64,000 nt of DNA from Escherichia coli (GTDB lineage Bacteria > Pseudomonadota > Gammaproteobacteria > Enterobacterales > Enterobacteriaceae). Location: NCBI RefSeq assembly GCF_003991155.1, contig NZ_CP031293.1. One strand, written 5' to 3'. Positions 44,307-56,923 of this stretch are shown here, one piece after another. Below the pieces are notes generated by a model. It was given only the letters and a program-made list of their open reading frames with translations. It did not search any database and was not told the origin of the DNA. The translations under genes and the position numbers were made by a program. Each line of letters starts with the position of its first letter. Within the stretch, counting starts at the first letter, position 1.

Positions 44307-45170
44307 ATGGATATAACTTGTTTAGAATGTGGCAATGTTCTTGACGACCCAACTGTAGCTTGCGATAAATGCGGTGCCACGCCTCATGTTGTAGTGCTGG
44401 GCAAACAATCGTACTTTCCTATTGGTGCTGTAACAGCAAATCTTGAAAAAAATGATTCAAGAGCATTTGATTATCGATTAGGTGAAGTTTGGGATCTAAA
44501 AAATGAAGTCACATCTGAATTCATAACCAGAATTGAGAAAAAATTTAGCCGAAAAAACAAATTTCATAACTTCCTAGACTCAGATCACAACCCTTCATCC
44601 ATTCCTACGATCCTAAAAAAATACATTAATAAGAATAATGAATTCATTGATTTATCTAGAGCTATAATAGAGAAGCTTAAACATAATGCTAATAACGAAT
44701 CGAGAGTTGCCCAACTTCAGGGGGGGAGCGTTGTTTTCATCCACTATAAGTCTACCGAACCAGAGGATTTGGGGAAACTTCTAATCGTAATGGTTGATAA
44801 ACAAAGCGCCTATGACTTTGATTCGGATAAGTTGACCCCAACAAGATTAAATCCAATTAATACCGATGCCTTACGGCAGGCTGCGATGTTCGATTTAACT
44901 TTATTCGAAGCCAGTTATCCAGAAAACAAGGGTGACTCATATGTACATTTCTTGCAAGGTAAATCTAAAAGCGATTTTTTCAAAGACTCATTAGGTTGCC
45001 GACATGATTCGGACAATAAAAGAAGCATTCAGCAATTATTCAGTGCTATAGATATTTTTGCTAGTAAAAACTCACTCGGTCGTGTACTGCGTGATACTAT
45101 TGACAATGAAGTTAAATCCTTACTGGAAAAAAATCAAAAGATAAACACGGAAATAAGTCCGTTAAGATAG
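44307..45170 (+). CDS. Zn-ribbon + NdpA/YejK-like nucleoid-associated-protein-family protein, truncated by frameshift at an A7 tract
   Basis: 287-aa ORF; N-terminal CLECGN-x10-CDKCG; FSRKNKFHNF, GGSVVFIHYK and YVHFLQGKSKSDFFKDSLG align by eye to YejK; AT-rich. Confidence 0.7.
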   Translation: MDITCLECGNVLDDPTVACDKCGATPHVVVLGKQSYFPIGAVTANLEKNDSRAFDYRLGEVWDLKNEVTSEFITRIEKKFSRKNKFHNFLDSDHNPSSIPTILKKYINKNNEFIDLSRAIIEKLKHNANNESRVAQLQGGSVVFIHYKSTEPEDLGKLLIVMVDKQSAYDFDSDKLTPTRLNPINTDALRQAAMFDLTLFEASYPENKGDSYVHFLQGKSKSDFFKDSLGCRHDSDNKRSIQQLFSAIDIFASKNSLGRVLRDTIDNEVKSLLEKNQKINTEISPLR

Positions 45171-45481
45171 AGGATATTTCAAAAATAATTGACTCATGCC
45201 TGACTGATTCACACAAATGTAAGGGAACGTTTGTCGATTTTGTTAATCTTAATGGTTTCCAGATTGACCCTCAATTTGAACCAACTCCTAAAGCAGCTGA
45301 AAGCGCGCTTACAATTGAAGTGGCAGATAACGACAATAATTTTAAGTTGAAAATAATGCGTGGAGCTATTGGAGACGAAAAGTCAAATAAGCCTGTAATT
45401 CTCACTGACAACAAATGCGAAATTGTGATAAAATTGAGTCAGGCAAATTATGATGAACTCAAAAGATATAGAGACAGCTAA
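45116..45481 (+). other. Open -1 frame continuing the upstream gene (YejK-like C-terminal region)
   Basis: Frame open from 45116 to TAA at 45479-45481, 2 nt before the next ATG; needs a -1 shift at AAAAAAA 45127-45133. Confidence 0.55.
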
Positions 45482-45483
45482 TA

Positions 45484-46698
45484 ATGACAATTGCTGATGA
45501 CTTATCAAGATTAGCGCAGATTATTAACGGAGCCTCAAGCAGAGTTGAGGGCTACTACACTGTCATAAGTCTTGAAGAAAGCATTGTTATTGTAAATAGT
45601 TCTGAAATAATTAGACTGTTACAATCTATAGGTTATAAAAAGGCAACAACCTGCATCGAAAATAATGAAATTTGGCTAGATCGCCAAGCTTCATCTTGGG
45701 ATGATGCTATAATTTATGAGAATGTTGAGTCTTTTTGGTCTAGAGTAAACACCCAAAACGCTCTTCCGAAAAATTATATCATCGGAACGCCGTTAATACT
45801 CCCTACTTCTAAGAATGAAAGCATCGAAAAAATCCATATTTTCTTTATGTGGAAAGATATCCTTTCATTAATTGCTGATCATCATAACAGTGACTGCTCT
45901 GTCTTATTTTTCACCAATGAAGACAAAAGTTATACAGTCGAACTCACGCATTTTTTACAATATAGCGAGATTAATCGCTTATCGAACTCGTCTCTTAAAT
46001 ATGAAATTATAAAGGAGCTTCTCGACACAATAAAAATCAATGATTTACACAAAAGCGAGCGCAAGCTCGTTATACGCTCAGCCATAAACGAAGTATTTAA
46101 AGCAAATGGTACGTTCAATTTCTTTGACTTGCTTAACTCTACTGAACTCGTCAGGAAAAAATATGATGAACTATATGAGATTTACACAAAGAGGTTTTCT
46201 GTAAATAAAATTCTTAACGAACTCGATGAGAAAAATCTTGAGTTCACGAGTAAAATTAACGAATTCATATCATCTAATCAGACAAAAGCATTGACTATTC
46301 CCGGTGCATTAATAGCAGCTGGTGGCTTAGTGAAGGCTAATGAAACAACCGAAGCAATATTGATTATCGCAGGACTTTGGATGATAAAAAAAGTCAATTA
46401 CATTTCTATTGAGATATTCAATGAAACATTCGACAACTTACGTTCTCGAGTGGAGTCCGCTTTCGATAAGTATTTAAAGTTTGAAGAAAATAAAGAAATC
46501 AAAGATAATGCAGATAGTATTAAGAGTAGCATTACAGGTTTGATTGATAAAGCTAAAAAAAGGATGAGAACTGTTAAATATCTCGCATCAGCCATGTTTT
46601 ATGGAGGCCTTATTTACGTTGGATATAAACAGTTCCCAGTCTTTTTTGAAAAATCGGCAGTAAATCTATTTTATTTTTTATGCCATACTATAAGCTAA
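45484..46698 (+). CDS. Hypothetical membrane-anchored protein, two C-terminal TM segments
   Basis: 404-aa AT-rich ORF; hydrophobic LTIPGALIAAGGLV...ILIIAGLWMI and YLASAMFYGGLIYVGY; no Walker or nuclease motifs seen. Confidence 0.7.
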   Translation: MTIADDLSRLAQIINGASSRVEGYYTVISLEESIVIVNSSEIIRLLQSIGYKKATTCIENNEIWLDRQASSWDDAIIYENVESFWSRVNTQNALPKNYIIGTPLILPTSKNESIEKIHIFFMWKDILSLIADHHNSDCSVLFFTNEDKSYTVELTHFLQYSEINRLSNSSLKYEIIKELLDTIKINDLHKSERKLVIRSAINEVFKANGTFNFFDLLNSTELVRKKYDELYEIYTKRFSVNKILNELDEKNLEFTSKINEFISSNQTKALTIPGALIAAGGLVKANETTEAILIIAGLWMIKKVNYISIEIFNETFDNLRSRVESAFDKYLKFEENKEIKDNADSIKSSITGLIDKAKKRMRTVKYLASAMFYGGLIYVGYKQFPVFFEKSAVNLFYFLCHTIS

Positions 46699-47905: not shown

Positions 47906-48068
47906 GATTCCTCCTTGCTGCCAGTCGCAACCATTTTTTATCAACCAGGCTAGCGGTATATCCGAGCAGTGTTGGTATTTCGGATGGCTTCGGCTCAGGC
48001 TTACGCTTACGACGATTTGATACTCTGTAGATGTGTCCGTTCATGACACGAATAAGCGGTGTAGCCAT
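47898..48068 (-). CDS. ninE: NinE family protein
   Basis: Reverse-strand translation [31 protein letters not shown]... (56 aa); start overlaps ybcN stop. Confidence 0.6.
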   Translation of the reverse strand: MATPLIRVMNGHIYRVSNRRKRKPEPKPSEIPTLLGYTASLVDKKWLRLAARRNHG

Positions 48069-48523
48069 TACGCCTCCTGCTTGTCACGGAGCAGCTGGAA
48101 CTCGCAGCTCTGCGGAATAGTCAGGTGGCAGCCAATATTCACCGCCCAGGCTTCAACCTTACACAGGAAGACATACATCTCTCCGGTATCAAGATCGGAG
48201 GTATGGCGTAACGACTGGATAGTGGTGATATCACCGGTTACGACATCAACCAGGTCTTTGGTTTCATAACCGAGATATGTGTGTTTGAGAGCATCTTTTA
48301 CCCAAGCTGGAGTGGCGAACGTTTTACCCCTGTTGATGAGGTATTCACTGATTTCGCTGTACCACATGTGGCTGAGTGCATTCTGGGAAAGACTGCGTTT
48401 CTCACGCCACGGTTTAAGCACCATGCGAAAGCATTTGCCCTCCTCCAGATAAGGCTGGATCTGCCGACCGATAGCGGTGAAGTTACCGCGATGTAATTTG
48501 ATGCCATCTTGTGGGAGATTCAC
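48068..48523 (-). CDS. ybcN: YbcN-like nin-region protein (DUF1367)
   Basis: 151-aa [37 protein letters not shown]... Confidence 0.8.
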
Positions 48524-48719
48524 GCTTCACCTCCGCAGAGGTCAAACGCTGGATGCAAAAAATCGCAGGTGCATCTCTGCATCTGTGAAGGGAGAAGAGA
48601 GTTTGGATTGTATGTGCGCATAAACGTCCCCGTTTAGCGCAGAAGTCACCGGAGTTGTTCAGGCTCCGATGACATGATTATGGCAAAATGATTATGTAAA
48701 ATCAAAAGCCAAAAAACAA

Positions 48720-49664
48720 TTATGGTTTATTTTCTAGCTCTGATTTTTTGAAAGCTTCTATCAGACGATTAGCATCTTCTGTACCACCAGGAAGCACGTT
48801 TGATTTTTTAAGAATATACGGTGGGAACTTTGTGGTTAAATATTCATGCTTAAACCATCTACGAAACTCTGACAATGCAGAATCAGGATAGGCATTAATG
48901 ATCTGAGGATTGGAACTTGCCTGAAGAAAATCTTCAGGGTAATAATGCTCACAGTCTACTCTTTCTCCAAATTCTGTTGCTAACCCCTTTGCTTTCCAGT
49001 GACGCGCCCAGCAAGAACCAACACTGCCATCAGGTACGGTATGCTGATTAATCGCTAATCCAGCATTGATGAGATCTACCATCATACCTGCAATTTCATT
49101 AAATATAATGAAATACCCATCAGGTATGGTTCCCTTATCTTTTAATAAAGATACTCTGTCATGGTAATGCCTCCACGGGTCCTCCGGTTGATATTTTAGC
49201 GCCTCGTATATAAATGTCTTGAGGCCTTTTTTAGCAAGCTCTCTGTAAGATCTAATTGCAGTCTCACTTTCTGCTTGTTTTGCTTCAAAGGCATAGTATT
49301 CAAGTATAGCCATGCATACAACATCTGGATAAGCATGGTACTCAACACCATTTCGAATTATTGGTATATAAAGTTTTTCATCTGTAAAACCTTCATTAAG
49401 AAGATATGTACCAATAAAAGTCATTCTTCCTTTTTTGAAAATACCGTTCTCAACAGATTGAGCCCACTCATCGGTAATTTCCTTGATTCGCAAACGCTGA
49501 ACACCACAAACATTTGCCAACCCATTCTGAGTAAGGTACGGAATTCCGTTATCGAGTACCCCCATTTCTATACCGTTAATGACAGCCTCTTGCTTAACAT
49601 CTAAGTCTAAAGGTATGGATCTGAGGGAGGTAGTTCTCTGTTGTGCCATTTTTGATCCTATCAA
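48720..49664 (-). CDS. Hypothetical protein with possible Bro-N/KilA-N-like N-terminus (nin-region moron)
   Basis: 314-aa AT-rich ORF; N-terminal GVLDNGIPYLTQNGLANVCGV loosely resembles Bro-N; C-terminal region unassigned. Confidence 0.55.
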   Translation of the reverse strand: MIGSKMAQQRTTSLRSIPLDLDVKQEAVINGIEMGVLDNGIPYLTQNGLANVCGVQRLRIKEITDEWAQSVENGIFKKGRMTFIGTYLLNEGFTDEKLYIPIIRNGVEYHAYPDVVCMAILEYYAFEAKQAESETAIRSYRELAKKGLKTFIYEALKYQPEDPWRHYHDRVSLLKDKGTIPDGYFIIFNEIAGMMVDLINAGLAINQHTVPDGSVGSCWARHWKAKGLATEFGERVDCEHYYPEDFLQASSNPQIINAYPDSALSEFRRWFKHEYLTTKFPPYILKKSNVLPGGTEDANRLIEAFKKSELENKP

Positions 49665-49853
49665 TTTGAATTCATTGAAAAAATTAGGTGTTCCCTATGC
49701 ATTAGAACACTCATCATAGTAACCCCACTCGTTTGTGAAAAAAACTAATTTCACAATCAGTTAACTCTCAAAATAACTGATATTCATACTCTCGCTATCC
49801 CATATATAGACATCCTTGTTTTAATACAACACTCATGGCTGGCGGCTATACTC

Positions 49854-50171
49854 CTAACAGATTTGACGCAAATACGGCAATACTCGACTCCACTTATCAT
49901 CCTGCCACGGCTGAAGTTTTACATGTGCCGTTTCTCGGACGAGGATTGCTCGCGCTCTGTTGAGTATCTGGGGATATTCTTGCTCGATGGAAGTGAAGTG
50001 ACCAGCTTCACCATGCTCCGCATCCTGAAGAAGATGAGTAACGTTCTGGTAGGCAATTAACATCACATTCCCTGCTCGCCATAACCAGGCGAGTGTGCAA
50101 AGTTCGTTATCAGTGAATTGTTTTGTGATTGGGGATTGTTGAACTGCTAGAACGAGAACGCCAGCATCCAT
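49854..50171 (-). CDS. Hypothetical phage protein
   Basis: 105-aa ORF (non-ATG start likely); between the 314-aa gene and the recombinase. Confidence 0.35.
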   Translation of the reverse strand: MDAGVLVLAVQQSPITKQFTDNELCTLAWLWRAGNVMLIAYQNVTHLLQDAEHGEAGHFTSIEQEYPQILNRARAILVRETAHVKLQPWQDDKWSRVLPYLRQIC

Positions 50172-50282
50172 TGGCAGTCCCTATAGTAAAACCATAGCTC
50201 AGGACGCTTCGTTCAGGATAGATAATTTTATTGTACTTACCTAACTTTCTTACTATAGCACGGTTGAAAAAGTGATTATTAC

Positions 50283-51809
50283 TCAAAAATAAACCTCACC
50301 ATCAACCATATATTTGAGAGTACTTATCGCCTGCTGGGCGGATATTGTTTTCATTAAAGGATAGTGTTTAAAAACAATGCCATTCATAAAATAGATATCA
50401 CAGGTTTTATTATCTGTATTGATTATGATTTTTTCGAATGTTTTATAGGCAAGTGTACGACATAGCTCTCGCCCATTTTTACTGGTTAAGTCAATAGCAT
50501 GAAAATCACCAAGTGAGCTCACCGCTTTACTCTTCAAAGTTTTTAATGATACAGAAGCCCTTCGTAATTCCTTATCTAATACTCTGATTTTTTCTGCTAT
50601 AGCGGTAACTTCAGGCGCAACAGATAATGCAGCAATTAAATTATTAATTTTCATCTGGAGCTCAATAATTTTCAACTCTAAAGTTTCATTAGCATCTTTC
50701 TTGTTTTCAACTGGTTGGATTTTACTACAATTAAAAAGCAACTCATTAATGATATTATAATCAACCAAATCTCTCTTTATTGATGGCCTGTCACATCGAT
50801 GCAGTCTTCTCATCGGACAAACATAATAGCCATGCAAACTTCCAGATACCGCATGAACAATCATGGTATTACCACAAGCCTCGCACTTCATAACTGTTCG
50901 AAGTAGATTTATCAACATAGGATTTTTGCTACTATTGCTAATACCAAAAGGTGCCAACCGAATTTCCTGCACAGCGTAAAACAAATCATCTGATATGACT
51001 CTGGGATAATAGCCAGCGATTTCACTTATTCCTTTACCTCTTGCACGATATGAAGGTACGCATATACCTATCAGAGCTTTATTCGCTAATAATTTTTCAA
51101 TTACAGAAGGTCCCCATGCACTTTCTTTTCCTGAGAAATTCTTTACAGCATGATCATTTAAATACTTGGCTATTGCATTCAATGAGCGCCTTTCCATCCT
51201 GAGTTTAAAAATTAGCTCAATAGTTTTCACCCTGTCGGGGTCTGGAACAAAAGCCGTTCTTTTGTCATCTAAGGAGAGCCATCTCGGACAAGACGCCGTC
51301 ATAATCGTGCCTGACTCCAGTGCATCCTGCCGTTTTTTCTTCCATGATAATTTAACCCGACTTGACTTTATCTCGCTTTCTTCATTTGCCCTTTGTGCTA
51401 TAAGTATGGCTTTTATTAATGAATATGGATCATTCAAAGAGTCAATATTATAGACTGTATTATCGCAAAGAGTTATAACATCAATACCGTGATTCAAAAT
51501 CAATTTCAGACGCTCAATCGCTTCACCGACTTTTTCTCTTGAAAGTCTGTCCAGACTTTCAACTAACAATGTAGTTCCTGGCAATATATAACCATGCTCT
51601 ATAGCATCTAAAAATTCCGAAAAAGCTCCTGATTGTGCATGCTTTCCTTTGAATGCACTTAATCCTAAATCTTCATATGTTATGGTATCAAGATAATAAT
51701 CACTATTTACCTTTAACCATTCAGCAATAAGTCTTCTCTGTCGGTTTAATGAGTCGCCAGACATCTGACCTGGTGATGAAAATCGCATATATGCTATGGC
51801 TTTTTTCAT
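50283..51809 (-). CDS. ybcK: Large serine recombinase (YbcK-like)
   Basis: 508-aa AT-rich ORF MKKAIAYMRFSSPGQ... with resolvase catalytic domain, recombinase domain and Cys-rich zinc ribbon. Confidence 0.8.
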   Translation of the reverse strand: MKKAIAYMRFSSPGQMSGDSLNRQRRLIAEWLKVNSDYYLDTITYEDLGLSAFKGKHAQSGAFSEFLDAIEHGYILPGTTLLVESLDRLSREKVGEAIERLKLILNHGIDVITLCDNTVYNIDSLNDPYSLIKAILIAQRANEESEIKSSRVKLSWKKKRQDALESGTIMTASCPRWLSLDDKRTAFVPDPDRVKTIELIFKLRMERRSLNAIAKYLNDHAVKNFSGKESAWGPSVIEKLLANKALIGICVPSYRARGKGISEIAGYYPRVISDDLFYAVQEIRLAPFGISNSSKNPMLINLLRTVMKCEACGNTMIVHAVSGSLHGYYVCPMRRLHRCDRPSIKRDLVDYNIINELLFNCSKIQPVENKKDANETLELKIIELQMKINNLIAALSVAPEVTAIAEKIRVLDKELRRASVSLKTLKSKAVSSLGDFHAIDLTSKNGRELCRTLAYKTFEKIIINTDNKTCDIYFMNGIVFKHYPLMKTISAQQAISTLKYMVDGEVYF

Positions 51810-56204: not shown

Positions 56205-56474
56205 ATGAGTGATAAAAAACTTATTAAAAAATCAAATAACTGTGTAGATGCATATGCTGATGCATTTGGATATTCATCTTTTGGGGAAGATGACGATCGC
56301 TTAGGCTCCATATCTTTCTTTCAGCATGTTACAGAATGGGACGCTGATGGTAGTAATGACACTGAAAGCGTAAAGTACAACATTGCAACAATTCGCATGA
56401 CGGAAGATTTAATGCTTAAACTCGCTGACTTTATTCGCGATCAGCATGATAGAGCTAAAACCAATAAGTCATAA
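56205..56474 (+). CDS. Hypothetical acidic protein, first gene in the rexAB position
   Basis: 89-aa AT-rich ORF MSDKKLIKKSNNCVDAYADAFGYSSFGEDDD... Confidence 0.5.
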   Translation: MSDKKLIKKSNNCVDAYADAFGYSSFGEDDDRLGSISFFQHVTEWDADGSNDTESVKYNIATIRMTEDLMLKLADFIRDQHDRAKTNKS

Positions 56475-56482
56475 TATTAACA

Positions 56483-56923
56483 ATGAAATACGGTTATTAC
56501 GAAGCTCCAAACCTAACTGAAAAGCTTGAACAAGCGGCAAGATCATCATCTTTGCACACCGCAGCATTTTCTCAATCAGCTGGTATGTCTGGCGATAATG
56601 TACCTATGCTACAATCAAGTGGTAGCGGTGGCTCTGGGAGTAATAATGTGCTTGAATCAAAAGTTGCAAAGCTTGAGTCTGATGTGTCCTACATCCGACG
56701 TGACGTTGATGAGCTTAAGACAGATGTCAAATCTATCGACAGAAACATGATCGCTGTTCTGGAGCGACTCGATTCAATAAAAGAGTCACTAGCCAAAAAA
56801 CCATCCATCGATGCTATCGATAAAAAGATTTCAGACGCAAAGCTTGCGGTATTGCTTGGTGTTCCAGCAATCATCGCTGCAGGAACAGGGCTTTATAAGC
56901 TATCAATGTACTTTTTTCTTTAG
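56483..56923 (+). CDS. Hypothetical coiled-coil protein with C-terminal TM anchor, second gene in the rexAB position
   Basis: 146 aa; heptad-like VLESKVAKLESDVSYIRRDVDELKTDVKSIDRNM; hydrophobic tail LAVLLGVPAIIAAGTGLYKLSMYFFL. Confidence 0.55.
   Translation: MKYGYYEAPNLTEKLEQAARSSSLHTAAFSQSAGMSGDNVPMLQSSGSGGSGSNNVLESKVAKLESDVSYIRRDVDELKTDVKSIDRNMIAVLERLDSIKESLAKKPSIDAIDKKISDAKLAVLLGVPAIIAAGTGLYKLSMYFFL

Follow-up and report, generated by a model that had tools for sequence, protein, structure and literature searches.

We suggest that the 309-aa protein encoded on the minus strand at 48720..49649 of the window, the 64,000-nucleotide stretch of Escherichia coli DNA analysed here, is very probably a defence protein of the BstA abortive-infection family, and that its gene is cargo in a complete lambda-like prophage integrated at argU/DLP12, with its self-immunity element, aba (anti-BstA), at about 49628-49698. 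Family membership, domain layout, cassette boundaries and a family-wide repeat architecture at bstA 5' ends were obtained directly. It is the repeat signature, and not the bstA gene itself, that goes beyond the literature searched.

Coding sequence and family identity

Both open reading frames of the original prediction, of 314 and 105 aa, are present on the minus strand exactly where it placed them (48720..49664, read from a TTG start, and 49854..50171). The larger frame stands, with an amended length: ATG 49649 is almost certainly the true bstA start, giving 309 aa, and the TTG 49664 reading is less likely, because AGGA is read 6 nt 5' of this ATG, RefSeq annotates bstA as a 930-nt CDS beginning there, and the 91%-identical BstA relatives start at the equivalent position. 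The predicted AT-richness was also seen, with a GC content of 0.36-0.42 in the bstA region against about 0.5 in the flanks.

The guess that this is a BstA protein was correct. The protein matches PHROG 6287, 'BstA abortive infection system, replication inhibitor' (E=1.9e-136, residues 10-313, profile 2-303 of 304), and the PADLOC BstA model (E=3.8e-121, profile 5-291 of 292) end to end, and BLASTP gave 40% identity to BstA-BTP1 of Salmonella phage BTP1 over 97% of the latter (E=5e-77). The proposed comparison with the BstA family revealed full-length homology in both halves. The PHROG matches were to the BstA family only; NCBIfam gave no match for the 309-aa protein or the 105-aa ORF. Across 55 sequences, including BstA-BTP1 and BstA-Ec, 31 columns are invariant and all are kept in the window protein; the GVLDNGIPYLTQNGLA motif holds six of these residues (M29, G30, G35, L39, T40 and L44). 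An intact copy of the ORF, 100% identical in DNA sequence, occurs in about 108 complete E. coli genomes, which come from many different hosts and countries.

The protein is identical (309/309) to WP_000068668.1 of E. coli NCTC8623, whose coordinates agree with the entry for that strain in Table S1 of Owen et al. 2021 (PMC8585504). On this protein identity, the bstA of the window is already catalogued as a BstA homolog and the gene is known. The NCTC8623 homolog is only listed in that paper, where the BstA proteins of BTP1, K. pneumoniae 52.145 and E. coli NCTC10963 were tested (PMC8585504). In recent RefSeq records the identical protein bears the name 'BstA C-terminal domain-containing protein'. 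Identity of the window protein with BstA-Ec was rejected, the BstA-Ec cloning primer being absent from the window and the two proteins only 38-39% identical; the primer is present in strain 2012C-4431, whose locus is identical at the primer.

Domain layout and predicted structure

The AlphaFold model, built from a 55-sequence alignment (mean pLDDT 86), has disordered residues 1-10, an alpha/beta N-terminal domain at about residues 14-125 and then a mostly helical C-terminal domain. The N-terminal domain (49275..49610, minus strand), a three-stranded sheet with helices, is the one called KilA-N(-like) in the literature, a label that denotes remote homology (PMC8585504). The C-terminal domain, at about residues 155-300 (48750..49187, minus strand), is BstA_C (PF26567), precomputed for the identical-protein cluster and for all close relatives; no similar solved structure was found for it. 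Our Pfam-A scan, with a release apparently lacking PF26567, detected no domain in the 314-aa protein or in 55 relatives, Bro-N, KilA-N, ANT and P22_AR included. In the BFVD comparison of predicted structures, antirepressor, KilA, Bro and 'repressor domain' proteins dominate as the original prediction would have it, and the matches are weak. Its BstA/KilA-N idea was essentially right; the KilA-N(-like) label is compatible with these results, which hint at it.

Cargo cassette, exchange slot and genomic position

Over its whole length the window matches the E. coli PEC403 chromosome (100% / 99.996% identity), and it contains cusCFBA, nfrAB and ompT, followed by the lambda-like prophage, which is complete from intD to the tail fibres (int, exo-bet-gam, cI/cro, O, P, ren, emrE, ybcK, cassette, ybcN-ninE-ybcO-rusA-Q, lysis, lambda-type head/tail). 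The expected DLP12 backbone on both sides, with ybcL/ybcM replaced, was borne out by blastn against MG1655 DLP12: the window is collinear with K-12 at 96.5-96.9% identity as far as 48707 and from 50244 onwards, with 1536 bp between them (48708..50243, minus strand) in place of 1812 bp with ybcL-ybcM. The cassette is flanked by ybcK (50283..51809), ylcH (48520..48621) and ybcN (48068..48523).

The 105-aa ORF matches P22_AR_C (PF10548, E=1.4e-13, residues 15-85), PHROG 7640 (E=1.7e-69) and the C-terminal 70-90 positions of the Ant PHROG profiles. Its 78% identity to a 202-aa homolog in strain EH031 is confined to residues 101-198 of the latter, so its 5' half is missing, and these alignments mark the ORF as what is left of a P22_AR_C antirepressor-type gene after loss of its 5' part. 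In NCTC8623 and O104:H4 its reading frame is broken by internal stops. Beside bstA it was found in this one cassette alone, and in 0 of about 160 other fetched bstA loci. We rejected the ORF as a functional BstA partner, as it is absent from other bstA loci, truncated, and a pseudogene in two strains.

By its homology elsewhere the cassette is composite: in about 700 other E. coli genomes the DNA homology of the P22_AR_C module ends at that ORF's stop codon, and different cargo comes next. We compared this interval across the window (48708-49853), L172 (4131-4640), L173 (4120-4916) and L005 (6894-8252). It holds bstA in the window, ybcL-ybcM in K-12 (which has no P22_AR_C ORF), a 169-aa PHROG-1779 protein in O104:H4, and a HEPN-domain protein with a 133-aa partner in EH031. 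On these sequence comparisons, DLP12-type prophages have a slot for cargo exchange that runs from the P22_AR_C ORF (or ybcK) to ylcH-ybcN.

Typically, though not universally, bstA lies just downstream of the prophage repressor (PMC8585504). At least 42 of 95 representative bstA loci have a cI/S24-like ORF upstream, a lower bound from four query repressors only, and the closest relatives in other genera, in Lonsdalea (74% identity) and Morganella (69%), are both arranged cI - bstA - N. The window bstA is not downstream of cI; it lies in the nin region, between ybcK and ylcH-ybcN, a recombinase/nin-region context of which we found no mention in Owen et al. 2021 (PMC8585504). The 91%-identical alleles likewise lie in nin regions of other lambdoid phages, for instance in the order helicase - ren - small ORFs - bstA - DUF1367-like ORF - ybcO - rusA (L023). 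These alleles share 91% protein and about 77% DNA identity, with many synonymous changes and the protein preserved. In most of them, DNA similarity to the window sets in 44-61 nt 5' of the ATG (49693-49710), in two at the ATG itself, and it ends near the stop codon.

Several further observations concern the same prophage and its relatives. Immediately downstream of the prophage's cI-like S24 repressor, the slot canonical for BstA and RexAB (window 56205-56923, plus strand; L001 19606-20324) is occupied by two small ORFs of 89 and 146 aa (PHROG 4231 and 3556, function unassigned), which may be other lysogen-expressed cargo. A third bstA context, neither repressor locus nor nin region, was seen in L006 (Logan contig SRR18076608_18632, 1109-2053), where a 76%-identical BstA lies beside Baseplate_J, Phage_Wedge1, tail-fibre and acyltransferase genes and keeps a 10/12 repeat pair at 57 bp. 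Between Q and holin (44307-46698, plus strand) the window carries an AT-rich gene pair matching NCBIfam DS1_1_antiphage (nucleoid-associated, YejK-like) and DS1_2_antiphage above the curated cut-offs, the match having been made on the PEC403 copy, which differs from the window by one base. The DS1_1 gene of the window has lost 1 nt from an A8 run near 45127, a frameshift that leaves 287 aa, and the 404-aa DS1_2 gene (45484-46698) is intact; neither gene has a model in PADLOC v2.

Paired direct repeats at bstA 5' ends across the family

In BTP1 the aba comprises 63 bp of DNA, the first 34 bp of bstA and the 29 bp before them, with terminal CCCGCC direct repeats that are each essential by point mutation; it acts as DNA, at high copy number only, and is specific to its own BstA (PMC8585504). 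The BstA-Ec and BstA-Kp loci contain cognate aba elements, unmapped there (PMC8585504). We found no statement on repeats in non-BTP1 homologs in that paper or its supplements, and our literature search for later work on aba or the BstA mechanism returned citing papers only.

Using bstA loci from two scans of viral contigs together with loci fetched before, anchored on the invariant Met of the xMGVL motif, we obtained 164 usable 5' regions, of which 102 were kept as a non-redundant set, and counted direct repeats of at least 8/9 at every spacing from 15 to 110 bp. Such a repeat was detected at 57 bp in 32 loci and at 56 bp in 13, against at most 8 loci (typically 1-4) at any other spacing. A coding control stretch gave 2 loci at 57 bp and 0 at 56 bp, and composition-preserving shuffles of the first 54 representatives gave a mean of 0.8 per spacing (maximum 7). 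The second count was of 12-nt matches, with copy 1 restricted to 105-145 nt upstream of the Met anchor: at 56-57 bp, repeats of at least 9/12 were present in 52/102 loci (1-6 for eight other spacing pairs) and of at least 10/12 in 37/102 (0-2 for the same pairs). At fixed coordinates the copies share 7.0/15 positions within a locus versus 4.4/15 between loci, the within-locus value being reached by 0/10000 permutations, and most of the excess identity falls in a stretch of about 15-18 nt (copy-1 positions -131 to -114).

The pair brackets the bstA start codon, with copy 1 in non-coding DNA about 40 nt 5' of the ATG and copy 2 in codons 3-8, within the unconserved, disordered N-terminal tail, a position corresponding to that of the proven terminal repeats of the BTP1 aba. 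The repeat sequence varies widely from locus to locus (for example CAGCAGGCCGCC, CAGCCGGCCACC, TTGAAGGCCACC, AAAAGAGATCAC, TTGGGCACCACC, GAGCAGCACCCC, TTTTGGTGTACA and TCCGAAGGAAAT), and within one locus both copies change together; the BstA-Ec locus reads AGCAGATCCCT / AGCGAATCCCT and BTP1 CCCGCCA at 56 bp. These are the properties to be expected of a cognate, locus-specific aba. Two other origins were considered and rejected: a 57-bp tandem duplication, since identity is raised mostly over about 15-18 nt and drops towards background elsewhere, and repressor operators, since the repeats are kept in loci without a cI-like gene upstream. Many relatives (L018, L006, L007, L009, L047) have GATC, a Dam site, in copy 2 at codons 4-8 of bstA and GAAC in copy 1; the window has GAAC in both copies.

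We favour, with some reserve, the hypothesis that the co-varying pair at 56-57 bp is a general sequence signature of the cognate aba across the BstA family and that the mobile unit extends from aba copy 1 to the bstA stop codon. If so, aba specificity would be predictable and swappable from sequence alone, and an aba-to-stop unit would explain how bstA could leave the cI slot with its self-immunity kept, as in the nin-region allele.

Candidate aba of the window locus

We infer from the family-wide position that 49628..49698 (minus strand) is the candidate aba of the window bstA, with two boxes 57 bp apart: copy 1, ATAGGGAACACC, at 49698..49687, 38-49 nt 5' of the ATG, and copy 2, ACAGAGAACTAC, at 49641..49630, in codons 3-7. 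The original prediction had pointed to a possible internal anti-element; a pair is indeed present at the family-typical place and spacing, with just 8/12 ungapped identity and no significance of its own. AGGGAAC-ACCT aligns with AGAGAACTACCT with one gap, a gapped score reached by 743/2000 shuffles, and exact 6-mer repeats around the window ATG gave nothing convincing. The 91%-identical relatives read AGAGAACACCCT / AGAGAACGACCT (10/12) at the same coordinates, and the assignment is made because of this positional homology, not the score of the window's own pair. Given the degenerate pair, the self-immunity of the window allele could be weakened. Copy 1 coincides with the 5' edge of the DNA homology between alleles, suggesting that the transferable module runs from the aba to the bstA stop codon.

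Proposed function, expression and alternative readings

By homology to the three tested BstA proteins, the window protein would collect on the DNA of an incoming phage as it replicates and halt that replication, so that the infected cell would die with no progeny released. The prophage's own lytic growth would be spared by the short cognate aba across the start codon, which on the replicating prophage would neutralise BstA; here it would consist of the two AG(G/A)GAAC-type boxes. Defence activity, expression in the lysogen and aba function are thus ascribed to the window allele by analogy. Three homologs, 42-48% identical to BstA-BTP1, all gave defence, each with its own aba, and BstA-Ec was less active than BstA-BTP1 against coliphages (PMC8585504).

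Expression would most likely be that of a moron with its own putative promoter, although bstA could also be expressed on induction only, or be silent. The only promoter-like match in the 204-bp AT-rich spacer 5' of bstA is a weak sigma-70-like TTTTCA-17-TATGAT (49713..49741, minus strand; 9/12 in the consensus scan), and promoter-like and terminator-like sites are no more numerous in the region than in shuffles. An inverted repeat of 8 bp, TTGTGAAA-N8-TTTCACAA (49756..49733, minus strand, read from the sequence), overlaps the -35-like hexamer and could be an operator; its spacing does not fit CRP. An Rfam search of 48300-50500 (E<=0.1) gave no match. Just downstream of the bstA stop, in DNA common to K-12, tandem 14-mers (48674-48701; TTTTACATAATCAT / TTTGCCATAATCAT on the minus strand), each with CATAAT, overlap a promoter-like sequence (48705..48677, extended -10) from which ylcH-ybcN would be transcribed.

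It is unlikely that bstA is a passenger gene, silent or in decay, that was transferred to the early-lytic nin operon with no lysogenic promoter, an eroded aba and no defence. The position away from cI, the chance-level promoter-like match, a repeat pair weaker than in the relatives, the decaying 105-aa remnant alongside and the frameshifted DS1_1 defence gene of the same prophage would all suit such a passenger; its ORF is nevertheless intact with every family-invariant residue kept, the DNA is fully conserved in the roughly 108 genomes from many hosts and countries, and the protein-over-DNA conservation of the 91%-identical nin alleles (about 77% at the DNA level) suggests purifying selection at such sites.

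We consider it quite improbable that BstA is made in the lytic phase, from pR after induction or infection, blocking phages that co-infect or co-reside, with the prophage protected by its own aba as this is amplified. The aba works at high copy only, i.e. on replicating DNA, as this reading would have it (PMC8585504). The gene also lies in the delayed-early nin operon, oriented as O, P, ren and Q, and the scan detected no terminator-like site between ybcK and ybcN that would separate it from pR-driven transcription. Cargo of the same slot (ybcL-ybcM, the HEPN pair) is nonetheless of the typical moron kind, and morons usually have their own promoters. All characterised BstA proteins are, moreover, constitutive and act from the prophage state (PMC8585504).

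An antirepressor or Bro-type regulator of prophage induction (KilA-N/Bro-N head and effector tail) instead of a defence protein is very improbable, for the weak BFVD fold similarity to antirepressor, KilA and Bro proteins and the adjoining P22_AR_C fragment are set against an overwhelming full-length BstA-model match, a BstA_C C-terminal domain, a P22_AR_C adjacency limited to this one cassette, and no Bro-N, KilA-N, ANT or P22_AR in Pfam for the protein and its 55 relatives.

Significance and comparison with known systems

As one more BstA in a prophage, already named by RefSeq, PADLOC and PHROGs, the gene adds little in itself. It belongs to a BstA clade whose alleles lie away from the repressor locus, in a nin slot of DLP12-type prophages that is prone to recombination and holds other probable defence cargo in other strains, and these alleles raise the question of how and when they are expressed. 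The repeat comparison makes the question of the BstA paper, on the aba in non-BTP1 homologs and its specificity code, directly testable, with predicted box pairs (about 12-18 nt, fixed 56-57 bp) for about half of 102 diverse loci, BstA-Ec included.

The closest characterised system is BstA of BTP1 (PMC8585504), a prophage-borne protein of the same two-domain family, 40% identical over its full length, in which repeats 56-57 bp apart likewise bracket the start codon at the proven aba place. It differs in location, directly downstream of cI and upstream of N in BTP1 and in the nin region from ybcK to ybcN in the window, and in repeat sequence, CCCGCC versus AG(G/A)GAAC, a difference expected of cognate pairs. 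BstA-Ec of E. coli NCTC10963 is also a lambdoid-prophage BstA with defence and its own aba in the locus (PMC8585504), where we predict repeats AGCAGATCCCTAC / AGCGAATCCCTGC 57 bp apart; unlike the window protein, to which it is 38-39% identical, it has 298-301 aa and the canonical cI-to-N position. The NCTC8623 homolog has the identical protein in the same ybcK / P22_AR_C / bstA / ylcH-ybcN context and differs by the internal stop in its P22_AR_C ORF.

RexAB of phage lambda is likewise prophage-encoded abortive infection and accessory cargo of a lambdoid phage (PMC8585504). Its proteins and mechanism are unrelated to those of BstA. RexAB acts by membrane depolarisation and is co-transcribed with cI, and it is not known to have a DNA-based self-immunity element. 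P22 Ant and other P22_AR_C antirepressors share with the cassette the C-terminal domain matched by the 105-aa ORF, which is without their whole N-terminal half, and BstA itself has neither a P22_AR nor an ANT domain.
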